Shown here: positions 5,033 through 56,431 of the stretch, piece by piece
How positions within the stretch are numbered: position 1 is the stretch's first letter
Layout: the number at the start of each line of letters is the position of its first letter
Assembly (NCBI GenBank): GCA_050115675.1
Contig: JASFQB010000003.1
Span: 34,673 to 98,672, forward strand
Direction of reading: 5' to 3'
From: Candidatus Woesebacteria bacterium
Lineage (GTDB): Bacteria; Patescibacteriota; Saccharimonadia; Saccharimonadales; EFPC-124
DNA: 64,000 nt
Position numbers and translations under genes: made by a program
Notes under the pieces: model-generated
Seen by the model: the letters and a program-made list of their open reading frames with translations, nothing else
What the model was told of the DNA's origin: nothing
Database searches by the model: none

Positions 5033-5107
5033 TGGCTCCGGGGAGAGGGTTCGAACCTCCGGCCTAGTGGTTAACAGCCACCCGCTCTACCGCTGAGCTA
5101 CCCCGGA
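5033..5107 (-). tRNA. tRNA-Asn (anticodon GTT), CCA encoded
   Basis: Revcomp reads TCCGGGGTAGCTCAGCGGTAGAGCGGGTGGCTGTTAACCACTAGGCCGGAGGTTCGAACCCTCTCCCCGGAGCCA. It has a 7-bp acceptor stem, anticodon loop CTGTTAA and T-arm GGTTCGAACC. Confidence 0.95.
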
Positions 5108-5166: not shown

Positions 5167-5613
5167 CTACTTTAACGCAATAAGTCTTAGTTTAAACTCT
5201 TTTGCCACATCCTCAAAACCCAATACCTGCAGAGCACCAACTAAAATATAAAGTTGGTCTAAATCATCTGTGGTAATTGTTTTTTTAGACTCAACTTTTT
5301 TTAAACGCTGATCTATGCAATCTGTTAACCATTTTTCATGCTGAGCTGACATTTTTGTTTGCAGCTCTAATTTAACAGGAATATTAGAAGAAATATCCTT
5401 AACTACTTCTAGCGATCTTGCCGATTTATCGCGCTTGCGCAAGTGTCCTTTTGCAATAAGGTTGTCAATATGAGTTGCAACTGTAGAAACAGATTTATAG
5501 TTTAAAGACCTCATTATCTCGCGGTAACTGGGACCGTACCCATGACCGCAGATAAATCCATCTATAAAACTTAGTAACTCGCGCTGTTTTTTTGTTGGCC
5601 TTACTATACCCAT
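5167..5613 (-). CDS. LexA-type winged-helix DNA-binding domain protein lacking the S24 peptidase domain
   Basis: 148 aa. N-terminus PTKKQRELLSFIDGFICGHGYGPSYREIMRSLNYKSVSTVATHIDNLIAKGHLRK matches the LexA N-terminal domain. The C-terminal 70 aa are helical, with no Ala-Gly/Ser-Lys autoprotease motifs. Confidence 0.75.
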   Translation of the reverse strand: MGIVRPTKKQRELLSFIDGFICGHGYGPSYREIMRSLNYKSVSTVATHIDNLIAKGHLRKRDKSARSLEVVKDISSNIPVKLELQTKMSAQHEKWLTDCIDQRLKKVESKKTITTDDLDQLYILVGALQVLGFEDVAKEFKLRLIALK

Positions 5614-6029: not shown

Positions 6030-6497
6030 TTACATGCCAAATAGCTTTTTTTGCACCTGCCGCGGCCCTTTAAATACCCACAGCCTGTTAGCCGCGTAGT
6101 TCCAAAAGGTCATAAAAAACCAAACCACAAACTTACCAAGTAGCGGAGTTAGCCCTAACCAATTCTCCATCGCCCAAAGCATTATGTATGTAATTATCAA
6201 GTTAACTACCAATATTGTGGCGTAGCGCCAAACACTAGTAAACATACGCAGACCCTTGGCCTTGTCTTTGTAAACCCAAAATCTACTTAACAAATAATTA
6301 ACTATTAGACCAACAATGTATGCCGCAATCGTTGCAATAAGCAATCCCGAATTTGCGACCCAAAATAACATAAAAAAGGTAAAGTAATCTGCTGCAGATG
6401 TAGTCATTCCGGTCACAGAATATCTTACCACTACCCAAATCTCGCCCGACCTATATAATCTTATTACTTGAGGTGTTTTGTAATACGGTTGAATCAT
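6030..6497 (-). CDS. GtrA-family membrane protein
   Basis: 155 aa, four TM helices. RYSVTGMTTSAADYFTFFMLF... and C-terminal NRLWVF are typical of GtrA-like proteins. Confidence 0.85.
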   Translation of the reverse strand: MIQPYYKTPQVIRLYRSGEIWVVVRYSVTGMTTSAADYFTFFMLFWVANSGLLIATIAAYIVGLIVNYLLSRFWVYKDKAKGLRMFTSVWRYATILVVNLIITYIMLWAMENWLGLTPLLGKFVVWFFMTFWNYAANRLWVFKGPRQVQKKLFGM

Positions 6498-17810: not shown

Positions 17811-18974
17811 CTAAAAAAGTTTAATGTATTTGTCTGCAATGTCGTTCCAGTTATAGCTTTGTAATATTTTTTTACGAGCTTGTTCGCCCATTTGCTTGGT
17901 TTTTTTAGGATTATCAACCAGCAGTTGCATTTTTTGAGCTATTTGATCAATGTTGTCTACGTCTGTCAAATAACCATCCTTGCCATCATCTATTAAATCA
18001 ATCATGCCCGAAGCCTTGCTGGTTAATATTGCCTTACCGCTTGCCATGGCCTCTAAAATTGCGATTGGCATGCCCTCGTACGACGAAAGCGTGCAAAACA
18101 CATCACAAACTCTGAGGTAATTTACTACCTCTGTATTTGGAACTTTGCCAACAAAAATTACATGCTTTTTTAAGCCTAAATCATCAATTAGTTTTAAAAT
18201 GTCCGCCTCGTAATCTCGGCCACCACCCACCAGAACAAGAACAACATTTGAGTTGATCTTTACAACTTTTTGCAGCGCAAACAACAGGTTAAACACGCGT
18301 TTGCGAGCCCTGAACACACCCACATATAGCAGCGCTGTCTTGCCCGCTAGCTGGTCTAAAAATTTTTGGTCTAGCCTAGGTTTGCCTGGTGTAAAATTAC
18401 CTGGGTTAACTCCGTTGGCAATAATTTTTATGTTTTTTGATGAAGTCATATTGTAGGTGCGCATAAATTCTTTTTTGTTTTCGCTGCTCACTACAGTTAC
18501 TTCGTCTGCACAAACGTATCCAATCCAGCCCAAAAAGACGTGAACAGGCGAAAAAACCCATTTTTCTATATGCTCTTTGCGCGCTGGCTTAAATTCTTTG
18601 CCTTTAACTTTTACCGTTTTTATATGGGCAAATTCCGAAAAATATGACACCTGAAAAGAGTTAATAATTTTAGGAAAGCGCTCATTAAACAGCTTGGCCA
18701 ACAAAAACAAGGTCGTAGATGATTGATGCAGGTTTATAACATCAATTTTTTGCTGTTTTATAATTTTTAGCGCACGTAAGTTATTTAAAAATGCGCCTTT
18801 TATTAGGCTTTTTGAGCTTCTAATGACCTTGGGATCATCTTGCGCCTGACCCGTTGTTAACACCCAAACCTCGTGACCTTTTGCTTGGTAGGATTCTTTT
18901 AGGTTTTTTGCAATTTCGCCTACTCCACCAATTTTATCTGGCGGGTAGTAATCTGTTAAAATTAGAATTTTCAC
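17811..18974 (-). CDS. Glycosyltransferase family 4
   Basis: 387 aa. PPDKIGGVGEIA N-terminal motif and SSYEGMPIAILEAMASGKAIL. GTG start in a GTGA overlap. Confidence 0.85.
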   Translation of the reverse strand: MKILILTDYYPPDKIGGVGEIAKNLKESYQAKGHEVWVLTTGQAQDDPKVIRSSKSLIKGAFLNNLRALKIIKQQKIDVINLHQSSTTLFLLAKLFNERFPKIINSFQVSYFSEFAHIKTVKVKGKEFKPARKEHIEKWVFSPVHVFLGWIGYVCADEVTVVSSENKKEFMRTYNMTSSKNIKIIANGVNPGNFTPGKPRLDQKFLDQLAGKTALLYVGVFRARKRVFNLLFALQKVVKINSNVVLVLVGGGRDYEADILKLIDDLGLKKHVIFVGKVPNTEVVNYLRVCDVFCTLSSYEGMPIAILEAMASGKAILTSKASGMIDLIDDGKDGYLTDVDNIDQIAQKMQLLVDNPKKTKQMGEQARKKILQSYNWNDIADKYIKLF

Positions 18975-20913: not shown

Positions 20914-21927
20914 TTAATAAACACTCTTGTCTAAGCTTTTTTGCCAGCGCCATGTGTCTGCCAATGCTTGTTTTACACTTAGTTCTGCTTCCCAGCCCAA
21001 CATTTTTTTTGCTTTGTCGCCAGATGCGTACGAGCTTGCAATGTCACCCTTGCGCCTTGGCCCAACTTTGTGTGGAATTTTGACTCCCGTTGCGTCCTCA
21101 AACGCTTCAATGAACTGAAAGACACTTGTGCCGCTACCTGTACAAATATTAAATGTGTCTACGCTTTTATCGACTTTACCTAGGTAATTTAGTGATTTAA
21201 TATGAGCTCTGGCAAGATCCATGATATGAATATAATCCCTGACAGGACTGCCGTCTATGGTATTGTAGTCGTCGCCATAAACAGTTAGGTCTTCGCGCGC
21301 ACCCGTTGCAACTTGCATTACGTAAGGCAATAAAAAGCTCGGAACTCCGATTGGCAACTCGCCAATCAAGCCAGTTGGGTGAGCACCTATTGGATTAAAA
21401 TACCTAAGAATCAATGCACGCATTTTTGTTGCACTGCAAACGTCTTTAATGATTTGCTCGGACATTTGCTTAGTGGCACCGTAAGGGTTCATTGGTGGCT
21501 GAACTGGGCTGTCTTCTGTCATTGGTAGTTTATTTGTATTTCCATAAACAGTGGTAGACGAAGAGTAAATAAATTGCCTCACATTAGCGGCGTTCATTGC
21601 TTGCAACATTGCAACTAGACCGCAAATGTTATTGTCGTAATATTTTAGGGGATCGCCAACGCTTTCAACTACCGATTTATATGCAGCCAAATATATTACC
21701 GCCTTGCAGTTATGTTTTTTTAGAATAGACGTCATAAAGTCAACGTCACGTACGTCGTGATTATAATGGATAATTGATCTTCCAACTATTTTTGCAATTC
21801 TGTCGTAAATAAATGGTCTACTGTTGGTTAAATTATCAACAACAATTGGCTCATAGCCCGCTGCAATCAGTTCTGTACAAATGTGCGAGCCAATATAGCC
21901 CGCACCTCCGGCAATAAGAATATTCAT
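20914..21927 (-). CDS. galE: UDP-glucose 4-epimerase
   Basis: 337 aa. MNILIAGGAGYIGSH Rossmann motif, YGATK catalytic YxxxK, full-length GalE-like sequence. Confidence 0.92.
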   Translation of the reverse strand: MNILIAGGAGYIGSHICTELIAAGYEPIVVDNLTNSRPFIYDRIAKIVGRSIIHYNHDVRDVDFMTSILKKHNCKAVIYLAAYKSVVESVGDPLKYYDNNICGLVAMLQAMNAANVRQFIYSSSTTVYGNTNKLPMTEDSPVQPPMNPYGATKQMSEQIIKDVCSATKMRALILRYFNPIGAHPTGLIGELPIGVPSFLLPYVMQVATGAREDLTVYGDDYNTIDGSPVRDYIHIMDLARAHIKSLNYLGKVDKSVDTFNICTGSGTSVFQFIEAFEDATGVKIPHKVGPRRKGDIASSYASGDKAKKMLGWEAELSVKQALADTWRWQKSLDKSVY

Positions 21928-43200: not shown

Positions 43201-45351
43201 CTACACAGGCAGCCTAAGCGTTGCCTTTACGTTGCCAAGGATTGCCCTTGTGTTCATGACCCAGTTTTCCAGATCGCACACGTCCGACGGCAGTTCTTCA
43301 TCCGCAACATCGATAGCACAAAGGGCTTCCCAGTGCGCGTCCGTCAGTTGCAGTTTGTAGACTCTCAGCAACTCGTTGGCTTCGTCGCGCAAATCTAGCG
43401 CATGCTCGCGAAGCAACTCCGGGTCAGCCTCTCTGCTAATTTCAACACCAGCAAATCTGCTGACAATCTCGTACCCCTCTCTAGTCTTGACTGCGTAGCG
43501 CATGGCCACGTCATTCGGAATAACCGTACCTTCAATTGTGGCACGCTCATAACCAGCCCTGCTCGTCCAGTGGCGAATGGTACCCATAACCGAGTATCCT
43601 AGGGTAACGCCAAACTGGTCGTTGCCAAACAGGGTTCGGGTTGGCCTGTCGACATATTCCAGCGACTGCACCATTGCAAGCAGCTCGACAAAGCCCAAGT
43701 GCAACAGTTCACCACAGTCAACAACCATGATGTCCTGCAGCTTTGGCAGTTGCTCTCCAACCGCCCGAAGGACGGTCATAAAGCGCATCACCACATGTCG
43801 GATCTCTTTGCCAGAGTACCCCCACTGTCTGCACCATGAATCGTAGTCGTTGCCGCCAATGCGATAGGCGGTTCCAGCATCGTTCGGCTTTCCGAACTGC
43901 CGCAGAGCTTCCGCGACAATGTTGTATCCAGTAAGATGGTCCGACCCCTGAACTACATTGGGATCGGCATACTTCTGCAGCTTCTTGCCGGTAATGCCAT
44001 ACAGCTCACCGATGCTCGCAACAATACAAACTACAAACAGCAGGTCAACAACATCAAGGCCTTTAGCGGTAGCGATGATCTCGCCCCACCTACAACCAAC
44101 CGGCAAACGCTCAACGCGCTCACCAAGATCGGTCAGACCAAGCCGCCCACCAACACTACTAACCAATCCGCGAGTAATGAGCCTTGTAAGAACATCCTGG
44201 TAAGCCTCTTGATCAATTTTACCAATCAACTCCAACTCTCTGGCGTCAACGCCAATCTTGGCCGTCGACAGAGCCAAAAGCTCCAGGTTACCGCTCAAAA
44301 CAAACTCGGGATCAACTGTAGAGAGGCTGTGCAAATCCAAATAACAGTCGGTCACAATGTGGACCTCGCCGTCGGTCGCACGCCCGTCTACGCGCCCAGC
44401 CATCTGCAAAATGGTGTTGTTATCAAGCGCGCTGCGCCTGAGCTGACGAACGCCACCGCTAATAAACTCTTTGTACTGAGCGTCAACGATGATTACGGTA
44501 TCAAGTCCTCCAATGTTAAGACTAGAGGCCCCGGCGGCCGTCATAAAAAGCACAAACGGACGAGGAGCGTTGCCTTCGATGTAACTGCGCAGCTTCTCTG
44601 CAGACTCGCCACCGTGGTAAAAACCCGCGCTCACACCGTGCTGTCCGTCGCACCAAGTGGCAAGCCTTTCGGCCTCCTCTCTGGTCGGAACAAAAACAGC
44701 AACTCCTCGCTGCCGAGCAGCGATCTCTGGCAGGTGCTCGTCCAGAACCCTTTCTACATCCGAAAAACGGTGGCAAAGCACCTTGGCCCGGCGAGTAGGA
44801 TCGTAAGCCGAACAACTGATAACCTGACGAGCTTCAAGATACCGACTATACGAGTCCGGATTAACCGTTGCCGACATCCAAACAAACGTGCAGCCAGCCC
44901 GCTTAAGCAAAGCCATGGCAAGCTCAAGATGCTCGGAAGTCTGGTGGATCTCATCGATTACCACCAAATCCTCCACACCAATACTGCCAGACTTTGCCCA
45001 CTTTACTGCAACACCAGGAGTAATAACGATCACGTTGTGTCGATCCACCTTGGTATTGCGGTGCTCTTGCGTCACGATACCAATCGAGAGGCTCCGCCCC
45101 AGCACATCCAGGCAAATCTGCCTAATTGCAGCGGATTTACCAGTGCCGGCGCCAGCCACAACACCAAAACCGCCGTCAGACAGCAGGCCAGTAGCGCAGC
45201 TCAGATCAAACCCGCATTCACGCTGAATTAGCGTTTCAGGCAAAGAATCGTTTGCAATCAAAGCCGACAGGTTCACACATGTACTACGAGTAGGAGCAAT
45301 AACCACAACTCGCTTAAAAACCAGCATGTCACACCCTTCAATAGGTGCCAT
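43201..45351 (-). CDS. DEAH/RHA-family (HrpA/HrpB-like) SF2 helicase
   Basis: 716 aa. GAGTGKS, DEIH, SAT, TAAGASSLNIGGLD, QMAGRVDGR in order. Downstream region resembles HA2/ratchet (LTDLGERVERLP). Start could instead be the second ATG (45327), which has GAAGGG upstream. Confidence 0.85.
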   Translation of the reverse strand: MAPIEGCDMLVFKRVVVIAPTRSTCVNLSALIANDSLPETLIQRECGFDLSCATGLLSDGGFGVVAGAGTGKSAAIRQICLDVLGRSLSIGIVTQEHRNTKVDRHNVIVITPGVAVKWAKSGSIGVEDLVVIDEIHQTSEHLELAMALLKRAGCTFVWMSATVNPDSYSRYLEARQVISCSAYDPTRRAKVLCHRFSDVERVLDEHLPEIAARQRGVAVFVPTREEAERLATWCDGQHGVSAGFYHGGESAEKLRSYIEGNAPRPFVLFMTAAGASSLNIGGLDTVIIVDAQYKEFISGGVRQLRRSALDNNTILQMAGRVDGRATDGEVHIVTDCYLDLHSLSTVDPEFVLSGNLELLALSTAKIGVDARELELIGKIDQEAYQDVLTRLITRGLVSSVGGRLGLTDLGERVERLPVGCRWGEIIATAKGLDVVDLLFVVCIVASIGELYGITGKKLQKYADPNVVQGSDHLTGYNIVAEALRQFGKPNDAGTAYRIGGNDYDSWCRQWGYSGKEIRHVVMRFMTVLRAVGEQLPKLQDIMVVDCGELLHLGFVELLAMVQSLEYVDRPTRTLFGNDQFGVTLGYSVMGTIRHWTSRAGYERATIEGTVIPNDVAMRYAVKTREGYEIVSRFAGVEISREADPELLREHALDLRDEANELLRVYKLQLTDAHWEALCAIDVADEELPSDVCDLENWVMNTRAILGNVKATLRLPV

Positions 45352-45517: not shown

Positions 45518-46621
45518 ATGAAAATAGTAATTGATACCAGAATTATCAACTCTAGCACCGGACGCTACGTTGAGCGACTTGTGCATTATCTAGAAAAAAT
45601 CGACCAAGACAACGAATATATCTTGCTAGTGCCCAAAAAAGACCTAAATTATTACAAACCAACTAATCCTAATTTTTCTATACAAGAGGCAAATTTTGCA
45701 AATTACAGCTTGGCAGAGCAATTTGGACTACTTAAACTTTTAGACCAGCTCAAGCCAGACCTGGTACATTTTTGCATGCCTCAGCAGCCCATATTTTACA
45801 GAGGCAAACACGTTACAACAGTGCACGACCTAACGCTTTTAAACACCTATAACAGCGATAAAAACTGGCTTGTATTTAAATTTAAACAGCTTATTGGACG
45901 TTTTGTTTTCTACCTTATTGGCCACACCTCGGCTCAAATCATAACACCAAGCCAATTTACCAAAGATCAATATGCCAAATTTGCCAATATAAGTTTTGAT
46001 AAAATTACAGTCACATATGAAGCTAGTGATGTAAATACAACAACATCTGAGGCTTACTCACCTCTGTTAAATAAGCAATTTTTGCTTTACGTAGGGCAGC
46101 AAAGTGACTATAAAAACATCCGCCGTCTAATGCAAGCTCATCAACAACTTCGCAAAAAACATCCTAATCTAATGTTGGTTTTTGCAGGCAGTTTAAGCGG
46201 CAAAAACGGCGCGCCGCTAGTTGCAAATAAAGATTGGGCAATAAAGCAGAGATACGGGGGAATACTGTTTACTGATTTTGTTTCTGACGCTCAGCTTACT
46301 TGGCTATATCAACATTGTGCGACATATGTTTTTCCATCTCTTATGGAGGGCTTTGGACTACCAGGACTCGAGGCCATGACCGCTGGCGCGCCGGTTGCAA
46401 GCAGCAATGCCACTTGTTTGCCAGAAATCTATAAAGATGCCGCCTACTACTTTGACCCCCACAATGTAACCGACATGGCACAAAAAATTGACGATATTCT
46501 ACAAAATTCTAGCTTACGTAAAAAACTAATCAACAGAGGTCACAAGCTCGCTAAAACTTACTCCTGGCAAAAAATGGCCAAGCAAACCCTAAACGTCTAC
46601 AATAACATACTAACTAAATAA
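45518..46621 (+). CDS. Glycosyltransferase family 4
   Basis: 367 aa. PSLMEGFGLPGLEAMTAGAPV. Confidence 0.85.
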   Translation: MKIVIDTRIINSSTGRYVERLVHYLEKIDQDNEYILLVPKKDLNYYKPTNPNFSIQEANFANYSLAEQFGLLKLLDQLKPDLVHFCMPQQPIFYRGKHVTTVHDLTLLNTYNSDKNWLVFKFKQLIGRFVFYLIGHTSAQIITPSQFTKDQYAKFANISFDKITVTYEASDVNTTTSEAYSPLLNKQFLLYVGQQSDYKNIRRLMQAHQQLRKKHPNLMLVFAGSLSGKNGAPLVANKDWAIKQRYGGILFTDFVSDAQLTWLYQHCATYVFPSLMEGFGLPGLEAMTAGAPVASSNATCLPEIYKDAAYYFDPHNVTDMAQKIDDILQNSSLRKKLINRGHKLAKTYSWQKMAKQTLNVYNNILTK

Positions 46622-46894: not shown

Positions 46895-47374
46895 CTACTC
46901 TTCTGACTCTTTTGTAATTATAAGATGGCGATTTTTGCCTTCGCCCTCTGAATGGCTTTGTAGGCGGCCAAACTCAGACACAACACCGTGTGCAACACGC
47001 CTGTCAGCTGGGTTCATTGGCCTAAGGTCCATTTGTTGGCCTGTTTTCATAACTTCTTCGCACCACTGTCGTACTTGCTCGGCAAGACGCTCTGCACGAT
47101 GCTGTTTATAGCTTGCAACATCAATATTTACACGATTTAACTGAGCACCAGCGTTTTTAAGCGCCATAGAAAGCAAGTATTGCAACGATCGCAAGGTTTC
47201 ACCTCGTTGCCCAATCAAAAACCCATTAAGATGAGTAGAAGGTATAGACAACTCAATAACTTCGTCTTCACATCTGACCGTAATATCTGTATTTAGACCA
47301 AAAAACGACAACAAATCCTCTAAATATCGTTTTGCAAAGTCGATAGATTGATCGCGGTTTAGTGTTTGGTCCAT
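46895..47374 (-). CDS. jag: Jag/KhpB-type RNA-binding protein (KH + R3H domains)
   Basis: 159 aa. LIGQRGETLRSLQYL (KH GxxG) and NPADRRVAHGVVSEF (R3H). Located directly downstream of yidC. Confidence 0.88.
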   Translation of the reverse strand: MDQTLNRDQSIDFAKRYLEDLLSFFGLNTDITVRCEDEVIELSIPSTHLNGFLIGQRGETLRSLQYLLSMALKNAGAQLNRVNIDVASYKQHRAERLAEQVRQWCEEVMKTGQQMDLRPMNPADRRVAHGVVSEFGRLQSHSEGEGKNRHLIITKESEE

Positions 47375-47375
47375 A

Positions 47376-48296
47376 CTATTTTTTCCTTCGCTTCTTAACT
47401 GTCTTGTCCTCAGTTTTTGTAACTACTGCCTCTTTAGCATTTTTAAGCTTTTTTTGCGCAGATTTATCAGCAGATTCTATCATTTCTTCGCTATCTTCGC
47501 GCAAAACATAACCCTGTTGGGCAATTGCTACCAAGCTGGTCACTAACAGATACAAAACCAGTGCACCCGCAAAGTAAATAGATATTACAAAAGTAAGCGC
47601 AGGAAACACATAAACCATGCGATTGCTCATTAATGCACTAATTTCGCTTTGATCAACTGTTTTGCCCGCTGCTTGGTCTTTTAGCATATCGCGTAGTTTG
47701 CGCTTCTCTTTAACTTTAGGCAAAAGCTGTTTAGATTGAACAAATTGCAACATTGCTGCAATTACAGCCATTACAAATAGCGGAAAGTAAAATCCGTCGT
47801 TTGAAACAGCCTGTTTTGTAAGATCAACCATACCAAACATCATGTAATTAAACTTGCTTGGGTCGGCAATTATATCTGTTATGTACGGTAAATTGTGAAT
47901 AAATCCGTAAGCATAGTGAGCAATATTTGTAGCGTGGTCGGTTGTAACTAAGCGAACAACGGCAAACAGCGCAATCAAAACTGGCAATTGAACAATAAGA
48001 AGCCCCATTGATCCAAAAGGATTTACGCCGCGCTCTTTATAAAGCTCCATCATCATTTGGGCTTCTAGCTGCTTGTTGCCCTTGGTTTTTTGCTTGATCT
48101 TTTGCAACTCTGGCTGAAGTTTTTGCATAACTTTTGTTTGATGCAACTGCTTTTTAACCAGAGGCCACATTAACACTCTAATAAGAATGGTAAATAATAT
48201 TAAAGCTAAGCCAAAATCGTGCCCAGGAATAATGCCATAAATAAACAATAAAATATTAAAAATTGGTTGAACTAAGATAATGTCAAATAAACTCAT
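47376..48296 (-). CDS. yidC: Membrane protein insertase YidC
   Basis: 306 aa. LTILIRVLMWPL, QPELQKIKQK, YKERGVNPFGS, basic C-terminal tail. Confidence 0.92.
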   Translation of the reverse strand: MSLFDIILVQPIFNILLFIYGIIPGHDFGLALILFTILIRVLMWPLVKKQLHQTKVMQKLQPELQKIKQKTKGNKQLEAQMMMELYKERGVNPFGSMGLLIVQLPVLIALFAVVRLVTTDHATNIAHYAYGFIHNLPYITDIIADPSKFNYMMFGMVDLTKQAVSNDGFYFPLFVMAVIAAMLQFVQSKQLLPKVKEKRKLRDMLKDQAAGKTVDQSEISALMSNRMVYVFPALTFVISIYFAGALVLYLLVTSLVAIAQQGYVLREDSEEMIESADKSAQKKLKNAKEAVVTKTEDKTVKKRRKK

Positions 48297-48433
48297 AACT
48301 TATTATATAATATCACAAATTGTGATTTTTGCAGATAATGCAGCCTGTTTTTTGCAAAAATGTTGCATTATTAACTAAAATATTGTAGAGTATACGAAGG
48401 CTATTCGCCTTTTACCCTTTTGGAGGGATTAAC

Positions 48434-48616
48434 TTGCCTAGCAAGCTTTACAGCACCCGCCGCAACGGCGATGTTGTTACTGTCGAAATTCCCGAACTCG
48501 GAACAATTGACCTTCGAGGAGGAGAACGATACGACTGGAACGTGCGAGTCTTTCTTACCCCCGACTACATTGGTGATCTGAACGACATCGATCCGGTTCC
48601 CGCAGGGACGCCCTGA
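48434..48616 (+). CDS. 60-aa ORF in the same frame as the downstream CPBP gene, ended by TGA
   Basis: TTG start behind strong SD GGAGGG (48422..48427). Translation MPSKLYSTRRNGDVVTVEIPELGTIDLRGGERYDWNVRVFLTPDYIGDLNDIDPVPAGTP. May be the N-terminus of a disrupted longer gene. Confidence 0.4.
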   Translation: MPSKLYSTRRNGDVVTVEIPELGTIDLRGGERYDWNVRVFLTPDYIGDLNDIDPVPAGTP

Positions 48617-49510
48617 TTGCAGTGCACGGAAGTATCTGCGATCAACAACGGTAAACTGCGTCGGCTGTGCGAGGTACTCAAACACTTTGACATTGACAAA
48701 GATGGCACACCAGATTGCGACATGATTTTGGCCGTCATCGAGGGTTTGCTGACCCAGAGCACCGAGGAGCCCGATCCGCTTACCCGACCCACAGGTAAAT
48801 TTTTTACCAGGCTTATCATGGCCGTAATGCCACCTCAGCCGGACCGCCACATTGTTTACGGGTTTGGCGATATCAAGCGGCGCTTTAGGTGGTATCACTA
48901 TCCCGTTGCACTGGCGACGATGCTGCTGATTATGGCAATGATTCAGGTTCAGGTTCATCTTGTGCCCTGGACGAAATACTCCGCCATTTCTGGCGCACAT
49001 GCAATTGCCGAAAAGACCGGCCTTGCGGGCTGGAAGCTGACGATGATGTTTTTTGTGACAGTGCTTGTGCTTGCCATAGCTCTTAAAAGCAGGCTGGGCA
49101 AGCATTCGCAGTTCACGCACGGAATTCTCAGCAAATCGGCAGTGTACGAGGAACAGGCGTTTCGAGAGGGAGCCGAGAACTGGAGTTTTACTCAGCGGTT
49201 TGTTAGCTGTGTGGTGTTTGGCGCATTGCATATGATCAACATGATCTACAGTATCGCCATGATTCTGCCACTGGCTTTTGGTGGTGCCGTGTTTATGGTT
49301 GAATACCTGCGCGTTTACCGCCGTACCCGCTCGCGCCGAGCTGCGGTGTTGGCGTCTTCAATTGTGCATCGTGTTTACAATCGCCTTGCACTGTGGGTGT
49401 TTGTGATTTGGATGATCCTTCTGTCTGGCGTTGACGTTACCAGTCTTGCTACATCGTTTGCAATCGGCCTGATTTCGCTGGGCTTTTCAGAAAAACTTGT
49501 GTCCAAGTAA
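48617..49510 (+). CDS. CPBP-family (CAAX protease / Abi) intramembrane glutamic endopeptidase; start uncertain
   Basis: Motifs EEQAFR (EExxxR), FGALH (FxxxH) and HRVYN (HxxxN) within a multi-TM C-terminal half. The frame is continuous with 48434..48613 apart from one TGA. Confidence 0.75.
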   Translation: MQCTEVSAINNGKLRRLCEVLKHFDIDKDGTPDCDMILAVIEGLLTQSTEEPDPLTRPTGKFFTRLIMAVMPPQPDRHIVYGFGDIKRRFRWYHYPVALATMLLIMAMIQVQVHLVPWTKYSAISGAHAIAEKTGLAGWKLTMMFFVTVLVLAIALKSRLGKHSQFTHGILSKSAVYEEQAFREGAENWSFTQRFVSCVVFGALHMINMIYSIAMILPLAFGGAVFMVEYLRVYRRTRSRRAAVLASSIVHRVYNRLALWVFVIWMILLSGVDVTSLATSFAIGLISLGFSEKLVSK

Positions 49511-49523
49511 CACGCAAGTAGCC

Positions 49524-49547
49524 GCCCGGAGGGTAAAACCTCCGGGC
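49524..49547. terminator. GC hairpin between convergent CPBP and rnpA genes
   Basis: GCCCGGAGG / CCTCCGGGC with loop GTAAAA. A/T-rich flanks on both sides. Confidence 0.6.
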
Positions 49548-49559
49548 ATCACTTTAAAA

Positions 49560-49913
49560 TTATTTTTCTTGCCATAAATCTGCTTTTACAAACGCATCTA
49601 CAACTAACTCTTTTAGATCGTCGTAAGGCATGTCGTAAAAACGCGGTTCAAAAATATTTATAGCAATATCTGTTGGTGATTTTATGTGTTGCCAGTTTGT
49701 GCGCAGCGCTTCGTAAACTCTGCGACGAATACGGTTTCGCTTGGGGGCTGATTTGTATAATTTTCTGGTGACAATAATGGCACATCTTGAATCCTTGCGC
49801 TTTGAATTGTGTACATACCTAATAGACAACGCTCGGTTGCGCACTACTTTGCCATTTTTATACAGGTAACGCAAGCTACCATGGCCATGAAATCTATATT
49901 TATACTGAAGCAT
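49560..49913 (-). CDS. rnpA: Ribonuclease P protein component
   Basis: 117 aa, basic. KSAPKRNRIRRRVYEALR (RNR motif). Immediately downstream of rpmH. Confidence 0.9.
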   Translation of the reverse strand: MLQYKYRFHGHGSLRYLYKNGKVVRNRALSIRYVHNSKRKDSRCAIIVTRKLYKSAPKRNRIRRRVYEALRTNWQHIKSPTDIAINIFEPRFYDMPYDDLKELVVDAFVKADLWQEK

Positions 49914-49978: not shown

Positions 49979-50116
49979 TTAAGCAGAAAGGCTACGGCGC
50001 CCCTTTAAACGACGCAATTTCATTACTTTGCGACCTGCTTTTGTGGCAATTCGTGCACGAAAACCGTGTTGTTTAGCCTGCTTGCGTTTTTTAGGCTGAA
50101 ATGTTCTTTTTGGCAT
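49979..50116 (-). CDS. rpmH: 50S ribosomal protein L34
   Basis: Own translation [45 protein letters not shown] (45 aa). Not in the ORF track because it is under 60 aa. Confidence 0.95.
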
Positions 50117-54640: not shown

Positions 54641-55078
54641 ATGCACAAGCTAAAGTTTGCAGTTCTGGCTGCGGTGCTGCTAATTGTGGTTGTTGTTGCA
54701 GCTTGGTTGTTTGTTGGGTCGTCTAAAAACGATTCTGCAAATAACTCTGCACAGGTGGCAGCGCCAAACGCAAGTACTACATCAATGTCGGCAGACGACG
54801 AGCGCAGGTTTGAGCTGGCGCTTAACAGCGCTGACATTAACCAACAAGCGTCCGTCATGACCGCCGAAATGGGCGCAGCTTACAAATCTATGGGTCAATC
54901 TATGTTGCCAGATGGTAGCCAGGTTGATATTTTGCCCGAGACCATGACCGTAAGCGATAATGTAGCCAGTGTAGAGGCAACTCTTACGTTTTCTGGTCAA
55001 ACAAGCGAGTATTGGCTTGTTTTGGCGCGCACTGATGCAAGCAGTCCGTGGCTACTACTTACTACCGAGGGGAAGTGA
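54641..55078 (+). CDS. N-terminally anchored small extracytoplasmic protein
   Basis: 145 aa behind AGGAGG. TM helix FAVLAAVLLIVVVVAAWLFV and a roughly 90-aa soluble domain. TGA stop. Confidence 0.65.
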   Translation: MHKLKFAVLAAVLLIVVVVAAWLFVGSSKNDSANNSAQVAAPNASTTSMSADDERRFELALNSADINQQASVMTAEMGAAYKSMGQSMLPDGSQVDILPETMTVSDNVASVEATLTFSGQTSEYWLVLARTDASSPWLLLTTEGK

Positions 55079-55084
55079 TGCAAA

Positions 55085-56431
55085 GTGAGGCTTTACAGAG
55101 GGGCTATTGCTGCCTTTGCTGTTTTGTCTATGATGCTCTCTTTTTTGCTGGTGGCAACGCCGGCCAAAGCCGAAACCCCAGGTTGCATGCCTGATATTGG
55201 CAAAAAATTGCCTGTGCTGTTTGTGCACGGGCTAAATGCCAAAGGTTCAGACTGGGATGGTTTTAGAAGTTACCTAAGTGGCGAAAACGCAAATGTTGCA
55301 ACCGAGGCCTTTGACTACAGCGCCAACAACACTAAATGGGTTACCGATCCAAATATTGGCGCTGCATTGGCCGACAAGATTGCCTGCATGGCTACTTCTT
55401 CGCGCGAGCAAGGTGGCCAAGGCAAGGTTGTTGTAGTTGCGCACTCTATGGGCGGTCTGGCGACGCGTCAGTCCATCTCGGAGCGATCTGACATCCTGAA
55501 TGATCTTGGCATAGTAATTACTATTGCCACGCCAAATACCGGGTCAGACACGGGTGAATTTTTGGGCGATAGTCTGATAAAACTATGTAAAAAAGCTCTT
55601 GGCTTTGGATCAAGTCTGATTTGCGATAGCCTGACCAGCCGCGCCAACGATGCTGGCTTTTCTGCCTACCCTGCACTTATGACTGGCTCGCCAGAAATTA
55701 GTGCCTTGGCTAATTGGCCAAACGATTTGTCTGTGTACGCTATTGCTGGCGATATTAGGCCACACTACGACTTCTTTTTTGCAGAGTTTGATGGGTCTGC
55801 GAGTGGTACTGATACTTTGGTTACGGTGTCATCTGCGCTAAACGGTGCAAGTGAGAATACGCTCAGGTACGAATGCAGTGGCGACACGCCTATCGTGGTA
55901 CTTGGTTGGACTAAGGCGGATTGCGAACACAGCACTCTAGATAATAGTCAAGCCGTGCAGCAAAAAGTTGCCGATGTGGTTGGCAAATATATTGAGAAGA
56001 ACAAGCCGAAGCCGAGTGCTACGGGTACAGAAGTTGCTTTTAAGAATATGAAGCTTACTTTGCCAGATAATTGGAAGTATCAGTACGAAGATTGGAACAA
56101 TTCCCTGTCTTTGTATAGGGTCTCTGGCTGTTCTGCTCCAAATTGCCCCACTGTCCATGTTCGTGATATCGAAGGCATTGATTGGACGATTGGCGACGCT
56201 GGGGAGTGCAGTACTGGAGAGGGTTCCATCGGAAGCCTGGAGTCCCAGGGCACTTTTACGATGGGGTCAAAGAAAGCTAACTATTACACCATCCAGGTGT
56301 GTCCTAATACGCATGACGAGGACTATCATTTTTGGGAATTGCCAAAATCGGCAATTCTAATTGATACATGTGGGACGATTGTCCTGCCAGAGCTGCGTCA
56401 AATTTTAGCCAACGCCAAGTTTACTGATTAG
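55085..56431 (+). CDS. Secreted alpha/beta-hydrolase (lipase/esterase, PGAP1-/class-2-lipase-like) with extra C-terminal domain
   Basis: 448 aa, GTG start. Signal peptide ...LLVATPAKA, PVLFVHGL oxyanion-type motif, nucleophile elbow AHSMGG (GxSxG). Confidence 0.75.
   Translation: MRLYRGAIAAFAVLSMMLSFLLVATPAKAETPGCMPDIGKKLPVLFVHGLNAKGSDWDGFRSYLSGENANVATEAFDYSANNTKWVTDPNIGAALADKIACMATSSREQGGQGKVVVVAHSMGGLATRQSISERSDILNDLGIVITIATPNTGSDTGEFLGDSLIKLCKKALGFGSSLICDSLTSRANDAGFSAYPALMTGSPEISALANWPNDLSVYAIAGDIRPHYDFFFAEFDGSASGTDTLVTVSSALNGASENTLRYECSGDTPIVVLGWTKADCEHSTLDNSQAVQQKVADVVGKYIEKNKPKPSATGTEVAFKNMKLTLPDNWKYQYEDWNNSLSLYRVSGCSAPNCPTVHVRDIEGIDWTIGDAGECSTGEGSIGSLESQGTFTMGSKKANYYTIQVCPNTHDEDYHFWELPKSAILIDTCGTIVLPELRQILANAKFTD

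Follow-up and report, generated by a model that had tools for sequence, protein, structure and literature searches.

An in-frame TGA codon in a CPBP-like membrane protein gene inserted between yidC and rnpA of a Saccharibacterium

The gene considered here occupies positions 48434 to 49510 of the plus strand in a 64,000-nucleotide stretch of DNA (the window; contig JASFQB010000003.1 of NCBI assembly GCA_050115675.1), where it separates yidC from rnpA and is interrupted by a TGA codon early in its reading frame. The frame opens at TTG 48434, behind a Shine-Dalgarno (SD) sequence, GGAGGG (48421..48426, +), located 6–7 nt 5′ of the start (an SD scan reports it as GGAGG with a spacer of 7). Sixty codons follow (48434..48613, +), and codon 61 is an in-frame TGA (48614..48616, +) with a second TTG, 48617, directly 3′ of it; beyond this point codons 62–358 and the stop (48617..49510, +) form a frame that stays open through to TAA 49508–49510. 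The unit is flanked on the left by yidC (47376..48296, −; Pfam 60KD_IMP, E = 2e-38) and on the right by rnpA (49560..49913, −; Pfam Ribonuclease_P, E = 1.5e-16). Pfam matches and comparison with relatives place jag (46895–47374, −) farther left, and rpmH (49979–50116, −) and then dnaA (+) farther right. A first-pass annotation, made from the sequence alone, had proposed that a plus-strand unit with this start, this TGA, and this open remainder splits the minus-strand rnpA–yidC linkage, and both the sequence and the identity of the flanking genes agree with it.

The two parts of the frame belong to the same protein. Using both halves joined (the 60 residues plus the rest) as the query, we recovered 31 proteins, 28 of them 350–383 aa long and spanning 80–95% of the joined query, its first 60 residues included; a later profile search added about 20 full-length members of 360–386 aa. 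Some 55 homologue clusters are single proteins of 350–385 aa that cover both halves. In an alignment of 32 close-family sequences (A1), codons 1–60 align with the N-termini of the 29 full-length homologues and keep the conserved L22, L41, L49, and GDLND. At the position of the TGA all 29 continue, which makes it a premature stop, the 61st of about 358 codons. In the homologues this position is Y/F/L and comes just ahead of a conserved strand ("V-YLEC"), and TTG 48617 is the codon of a family-conserved Leu. Since the homologues are single proteins extending over both halves, the alignment identifies 48434..49510 as one gene cut at codon 61. The first-pass annotation had allowed for two genuine genes, in which case protease homologues should start just downstream of the TGA and the 60-aa piece should have homologues of its own. 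Neither pattern emerged: the homologue and profile searches returned no protein organized as 60 aa plus 297 aa, and no independent homologue of the 60-aa piece was found. Short forms of the protein do exist. An exhaustive profile search yielded about 400 representative clusters at 50% identity, of which roughly 20 have the long architecture, and most of the others are 230–310-aa forms that match only from about position 100–150 and lack the N-terminal domain; these natural core-only proteins (e.g., P0047) start near residue 100–110, not at 62.

An AlphaFold (AF2) model built on the alignment (predicted local distance difference test score [pLDDT] 80, predicted template modelling score [pTM] 0.77) shows where the cut falls. 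Codons 1–60 encode the β-strand part of an N-terminal soluble domain, with strands at residues 7–11, 14–19, 23–28, and 37–41 (pLDDT 75–92). A short helix at 47–49, a stretch without regular secondary structure at 50–62, and a short strand at 63–64 follow. The remainder of the domain consists of helices within 73–131, and membrane helices extend from about 155 to 356 as a multi-helix core. The TGA thus lies inside the modelled N-terminal domain, in its irregular stretch.

The interruption recurs in other assemblies. Over 12,789 bp a Logan contig matches the window exactly, and the protein calls in IMG (P0032) and in an NCBI metagenome-assembled genome (MAG; P0033) come from a separate 180.5-kb contig (JGI). 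Three gene callers give three truncated products: 262 aa in Logan, 297 aa in IMG, starting at the TTG right 3′ of the TGA, and 227 aa in NCBI, starting further downstream. More than one assembly thus has the TGA. When JGI metagenomes were scanned for the exact pattern around TGA 48614, there were 0 matches, and no record was found for the contigs encoding P0032, P0033, or a Met-start variant.

The three motifs that the first-pass annotation had read in the translation, EEQAFR, FGALH, and HRVYN, occur in that order, and they correspond to the EExxxR, FxxxH, and HxxxN by which CPBP/Abi proteins are defined (PMC3578759). EEQAFR (49148..49165, +; residues 239–244, with E239, E240, and R244) sits within the modelled helix 233–242, as is expected of an EExxxR carried by a membrane helix; FGALH (49217..49231, +; residues 262–266, with F262 and H266) provides FxxxH; and HRVYN (49367..49381, +; residues 312–316, with H312 and N316) provides the HxxxN/D of the last core helix. 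The residues E, E, R, F, H, H, and N are invariant both in A1 and in an alignment of 48 diverse relatives (A2, where the first motif is numbered E178 E179 R183). On this count the assignment made at first pass holds; at the level of profiles it falls short. The Rce1-like family PF02517 is the top Pfam match, but it scores 15.2 bits with the 297-aa part and 14.7 with the fused protein against a gathering threshold of 22.4, the weak match spanning residues 249–316 with FGALH among them. PF02517 is likewise the top, in-register weak match (E ≤ 0.1) in 16 of the 32 family members (best E, 5.6e-4) and matches two of ten distant members (17.1 and 20.6 bits); every family member tested lies below the threshold. 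NCBI names a full-length homologue from Saccharimonadales (P0285) "CPBP family intramembrane glutamic endopeptidase." Neither NCBIfam nor PADLOC has a match for the family or the protein, profile comparison with PDB sequences gave no CPBP match (A2 matched nothing, and A1 only EF-hand proteins, weakly, on the N-terminal domain), and Foldseek found no match between the predicted model and solved structures, Rce1 included.

We consequently describe the family as divergent and CPBP-like, a designation that its motifs support and that profile scores and fold leave unconfirmed. With the CPBP/Abi glutamic endopeptidases (PF02517) it shares a multi-helix membrane core and the ordered motifs. It differs in the extra N-terminal domain of about 130 aa, a β-sheet followed by helices with a DxDxDG loop, carried by its long form and matched by no Pfam family, and in its subthreshold Pfam scores and want of an NCBIfam match or of sequence or Foldseek matches to solved structures. 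Known CPBP/Abi proteins include eukaryotic and archaeal Rce1, MroQ and SpdC of Staphylococcus aureus, and Abx1 of group B Streptococcus, and some of these (SpdC and Abx1) act as non-catalytic partners (PMC3578759); the product of the gene studied here may be a protease, as its motifs would predict. The loop of the N-terminal domain, DIDKDGTPDCDM (48689..48724, +; residues 86–97), resembles an EF-hand, for which the family profile gives weak matches to secretagogin (E = 0.0019) and calbindin (E = 0.01). In many homologues it reads DxDxDGxFDxDE; family members differ at position 12, which is Met in the window copy, where position 8 is Pro. We regard the loop as a motif-level lead toward possible Ca-dependent regulation, nothing more.

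The DnaA protein of the window matches Saccharibacteria/Saccharimonadia genomes only, at a best identity of 80%, and the organism is a Saccharibacterium (TM7). Some database labels disagree: the NCBI MAG that carries this very gene (P0033) is entered as "Candidatus Woesebacteria bacterium," and two soil MAGs of the SMAG collection, one carrying a family member (P0019) and the other a dnaA locus of Saccharibacteria type (L017), are entered as Verrucomicrobiae/Verrucomicrobiia. Because the dnaA locus of the window is clearly Saccharibacteria-like, these labels are probably wrong. For comparison we used 80 species-level dnaA loci from relatives, 69 of which span the yidC–rnpA junction. The order glycosyltransferase–jag–yidC–rnpA–rpmH–dnaA–dnaN is conserved in those 69, with a yidC–rnpA gap usually of 45–125 bp (101 bp in L010, the closest junction-spanning relative, whose DnaA is 79% identical), and in none of them does the gap hold a homologue of the inserted gene. 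Since the gap lacks the gene in every spanning relative, the gene is best regarded as a lineage-specific insertion. Homologues elsewhere are found in unrelated contexts, next to a Cu-ATPase gene or between bipA and terC.

We found no trace of how the gene arrived. The locus has no integrase or transposase, and the adjacent genes are housekeeping genes; repeats bounding the insert are limited to short matches at chance level; no tRNA gene lies near it, the nearest being at 5033; and a DNA search of the unit against phage and plasmid collections gave no match. The route of transfer is a matter of inference only. The insertion has probably done little to its neighbors: yidC has a TATAAT 6 nt 5′ of its ATG, and its L010 orthologue has a similar TATAAA upstream, so yidC probably has its own promoter and the insertion probably does not starve yidC–jag transcription. 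Other genes occupy the same junction in relatives, a 331-aa Fic-motif protein (HPFADGNGRIGR) in L018 (7606–8601, −) and a 224-aa hypothetical protein in L063 (8513–9187, −), both of host-like GC; the yidC–rnpA junction is a recurrent landing site. The yidC–rnpA gaps of Nanosynbacter, at first taken to be about 400 bp, seemed a further case that might hold yidD, and this was rejected: there is no such ORF (open reading frame), the gap having been overestimated from alignment ends.

Base composition sets the unit apart, as the first-pass annotation had observed. GC content is 0.47–0.54 over 48350–49550 versus 0.32–0.40 in yidC, rnpA, and the spacers, and the G+C fraction at third codon positions (GC3) is 0.55/0.59 in the unit versus 0.36 for yidC, rnpA, and jag. 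We at first took this difference as a sign of recent transfer. In all 13 family loci examined (L001, L002, L005, L089–L096, L098, and L099) the gene exceeds its flanks by 4–18 GC points, with a GC3 of 0.58–0.91 versus a flank GC of about 0.42–0.55, and because each of the 13 is richer in GC3 than its host we downgraded this line of evidence. A high GC content goes with the family in every host examined and alone can neither show nor date a recent transfer; the excess could reflect repeated transfer from a high-GC pool or a codon bias specific to the gene. Within the family, GC3 is lowest in the window copy (0.58), whose host is also the most AT-rich, which would fit long residence and partial amelioration. 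A 276-aa ORF, also predicted earlier, is present on the antisense strand (48401..49231, −), and we read it as an expected by-product of the GC-richer stretch. Elsewhere in the window, a 716-aa helicase-like ORF (43201–45351, −; Helicase_C plus a subthreshold DEAD match) has a GC of 0.53 and a GC3 of 0.56 in a neighborhood of about 0.39 GC, has no tblastn counterpart in any of the 80 relatives' dnaA loci, and gives only marginal PADLOC matches. This ORF has the appearance of another gene of foreign or accessory origin, and the CPBP-like gene is only 3 kb away. A block at 54.6–58.2 kb is also GC-richer (0.48–0.50).

Candidate control elements border the insert. In the AT-rich, host-like spacer 5′ of the gene, a consensus scan picks out a promoter-like site, TTGCAA-18 nt-TAAAAT (48352..48381, +), which might serve the gene; such sites are no more numerous in the scan than in shuffled sequence. 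A perfect 9-bp GC-rich hairpin, GCCCGGAGG-gtaaaa-CCTCCGGGC (49524..49547), lies between the convergent inserted gene and rnpA. It may be a terminator and may mark the 3′ end of the insert; the scan for terminators passed over it because it is not directly followed by a T-run. Within the window an SD of at least 4 nt precedes 21 of 43 listed gene starts. Many window genes have TATAAT just 5–10 nt 5′ of the ATG (for example 866–1609, 1695–2624, 5167–5613, 6030–6497, 20914–21927, 45518–46621, and yidC itself), which suggests leaderless or near-leaderless mRNAs.

Two other members of the family are broken, at other places and in other ways. In L090 (ENA ERZ23486849, scaffold_54452) an in-frame TGA at 313–315 replaces the conserved Trp of an AIExALW motif. 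A perfect 10-bp inverted repeat, CGTCCTGACG...CGTCAGGACG (ΔG, −21.9 kcal/mol), contains this TGA in its 5′ arm; a TGG codon there would be the single mismatch, and we suspect a TGG-to-TGA mutation templated by the quasi-palindrome. In L099 (5654–6714; Logan SRR33619835), the closest core homologue at 52% identity, one T has been lost from a T-run (GTTTTAAG versus the expected GTTTTTAAG), splitting the gene into ORFs of 115 and 237 aa; either the gene is a pseudogene by frameshift or the assembly is wrong in the homopolymer. Three lesions at three sites in about 55 clusters look like the recurrent decay of a dispensable gene and not like a designed feature. At columns conserved at 80% or more, moreover, no member of the family deviates as often as the window copy (23 of 108); together with its low GC3, this is consistent with a long stay in an AT-rich host and perhaps with some relaxation of constraint.

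How the TGA is read depends on what TGA does in this genome. The first-pass annotation had remarked on its rarity, and a count confirms this: 53 non-nested ORFs of at least 100 aa end in TAA (32), TAG (19), or TGA (2, at 18971 and 55076), the internal TGA 48614 being extra. Stops in relatives (1045 ORFs from the 80 Saccharibacteria loci) are 49% TAA, 36% TAG, and 15% TGA (156 of 1045), so that the window, with TAG at 36% and TGA at 4%, unusual figures for a 40% GC genome, under-uses a codon that is the least-used stop across the clade (2/53 versus 15%; binomial P about 0.01). We regard this under-use as a quantitative bias in a low-GC member, not as reassignment. Both other TGA codons end genuine genes. 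TGA 18971 lies within a GTGA stop/start overlap, the next gene being in another frame. TGA 55076 had the look of a second in-frame interruption (54641–56431, +), since it ends a 145-aa membrane-anchored ORF that is followed in the same frame by a 448-aa secreted esterase/lipase ORF (DUF676/PGAP1-like). We rejected that idea because a signal peptide of its own, followed by GCMPDIGKKLPVLFVHG, opens the 448-aa ORF, just as one opens the lipase-only homologues P0194 and P0195, which are the closer ones. More distant homologues (P0205, P0206, and P0208, 540–558 aa) fuse a similar N-terminal domain to the lipase domain; the region is a gene fission/fusion pair, two genes, with TGA 55076 terminating the first. 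No in-frame TGA occurs in core genes (dnaA, dnaN, recF, yidC, and other core ORFs), and reading TGA as sense changes none of them. In this genome, then, TGA works as a stop, and the interrupted gene shows no recoding signal: 3′ of TGA 48614 there is no Rfam match to a SECIS-like (selenocysteine insertion sequence) or read-through structure, and the RNA fold is not significant (z = −0.37).

Of the three readings offered at first pass, we favor nonsense inactivation over recoding or read-through and over two separate proteins: with some confidence, though well short of certainty, we conclude that a recent nonsense mutation in an acquired accessory gene has made it an early pseudogene. We favor it because lesions recur in the family, because the window copy is its most deviant member, and because the possible downstream starts have neither an SD nor a −10 box. 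As had been claimed for the immediate restart, the SD scan found no SD at TTG 48617, and the same is true of ATG 48722, ATG 48818, and ATG 48827; none of the four has a −10 box nearby. In having a single premature stop relative to full-length homologues, in being an accessory gene that relatives lack, and in belonging to a family with other independently disrupted members, the gene resembles ordinary nonsense pseudogenes of accessory genes; it differs from them in having one lesion only, in keeping all invariant residues, and in a stop that abuts a potential restart codon. Several of these features weigh against inactivation. The lesion stands alone, every one of the 34 family-invariant residues is intact (all motif residues among them), and where conservation reaches 90% or more the copy deviates no more than usual (4 of 66 columns). 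If the gene is decaying at all, it has only just started to, and it may still function. The TGA abuts a TTG in a genome where overlapping or adjacent stop/start pairs look common, so termination–reinitiation could yield a 297-aa product, and a core-only product might work, given the many natural members without the N-terminal domain. UGA is, moreover, the leakiest of the stop codons, and a Trp inserted by read-through would be tolerated at this aromatic/hydrophobic position. The split gene might, in other words, still function: ribosomes would stop at TGA 48614 and reinitiate at TTG 48617 to make a 297-aa core, helped or not by non-covalent association with the 60-aa peptide. We think this clearly less likely than inactivation, though the strongest of the rivals. 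In its favor, the TTG follows the stop without a gap, a strong SD precedes the upstream ORF, stop and start codons overlap or abut in several gene pairs of the window, core-only members (about 230–310 aa, matching from profile position 100–150 on) are numerous, no catalytic-motif residue has been lost, and in the model the chain has no regular secondary structure where it is cut. Against this, TTG 48617 is merely the codon of a family-conserved Leu, a weak initiator without an SD; its product would keep half a domain (the helices and no sheet), unlike the short forms that start near residue 100–110; no homologue is organized as 60 aa plus 297 aa; and the two other members broken at different places and in different ways speak for decay rather than design.

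Three further readings keep the gene whole. Read-through of UGA, for instance by a near-cognate tRNA-Trp, whether low-level or enhanced, would give full-length protein in a lineage where termination at TGA is weak. The depletion of TGA among stops (2/53 versus 15%; P about 0.01) is in its favor, as are the positions of the codons, an aromatic/hydrophobic position here and a conserved Trp in L090, UGA being misread mainly as Trp. We think it unlikely, however: the two genuine TGA stops are in use and core genes have no in-frame TGA; the next base is U, and in E. coli UGAU terminates strongly; 3′ of the codon there is no stimulatory structure; no trivial nonsense change is commoner than TGG to TGA at a Trp codon; and the third family member is broken by a frameshift, which read-through could not rescue. 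The bolder form of this idea, that UGA termination is weak in the lineage and in some family-carrying relatives, with in-frame UGAs at aromatic or Trp positions read as Trp and the gene functional, is hinted at by the depletion, by the two members with an in-frame TGA (at Y/F/L and at a conserved W), and by the otherwise undamaged ORFs, and we give it very little credence. Programmed recoding is the least plausible of all, whether the codon specifies selenocysteine or the genome or donor reads TGA as Trp or Gly (code 4 or 25). It could appeal to the two family members with an in-frame TGA and to the scarcity of TGA in the window, and this CPR (candidate phyla radiation) host does resemble the code 4 (UGA = Trp) and code 25 (UGA = Gly) lineages in its few TGA stops and its in-frame TGA. 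Code 25 is indeed used by some other CPR lineages, Gracilibacteria and Absconditabacteria, whereas Saccharibacteria are treated as code 11 (PMC10746230). Selenoprotein genes have a SECIS element 3′ of the UGA and homologues with Cys; here no SECIS-like element follows and the aligned position is Y/F/L, never Cys. Alternative codes leave no TGA terminators and place in-frame TGAs at conserved Trp or Gly; here, unlike in such lineages, TGA ends genuine genes in the window (18971 and 55076) and in relatives, core ORFs are free of a codon that as sense would be frequent at 40% GC, and about 50 homologues are intact under the standard code. The scarcity of TGA, remarked on at first pass, does not indicate recoding. 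A sequencing or assembly error in a gene that is really intact would explain a lesion of single-base scale in an otherwise perfect ORF. It too is very improbable, since the same truncated ORF appears in the Logan contig, in the IMG call from the 180.5-kb JGI contig, and in the NCBI MAG, and substitution errors in consensus sequence are rare.

We return, then, to nonsense inactivation, for which we propose the following course. A Saccharibacteria lineage would have acquired an accessory gene, inserted as a unit of roughly 48390–49550 into the short yidC–rnpA spacer and bringing its own SD and 3′ hairpin. The intact gene would have encoded a membrane protein of about 358 aa, with a soluble N-terminal domain (a β-sheet, then helices with a DxDxDG, possibly Ca-binding, loop) and a core with the CPBP/Abi motifs. 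A point mutation would then have placed TGA at codon 61, within the N-terminal domain. Ribosomes starting at TTG 48434 should now release a 60-aa peptide, and the catalytic core would no longer be made at normal levels. The result would be an early-stage pseudogene, presumably with loss of function, of a dispensable and repeatedly lost family. Ordinary gene gain and decay, not an unusual genetic code, is the most likely explanation.

The locus has no bearing on genetic-code evolution unless the low-probability read-through reading is true. In that event a weak UGA would represent an early, ambiguous stage of UGA-to-Trp capture; to our knowledge, only UGA-to-Gly lineages have been described in this phylum. 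For annotation the case has some value, since three callers disagree on the locus and none flags the interruption. What is new about the protein is limited to a poorly annotated family variant: the family of about 400 clusters is largely unannotated, without Pfam or NCBIfam assignment, and seems to represent a CPBP-type membrane protease in Saccharibacteria, distinguished by its N-terminal domain. Three accessory genes in three lineages indicate that the origin-proximal rnpA/yidC junction is not inviolable in reduced genomes, and the interrupted gene, if we have read it correctly, shows how accessory genes are gained and then eroded in the ultra-small genomes of these epibionts.

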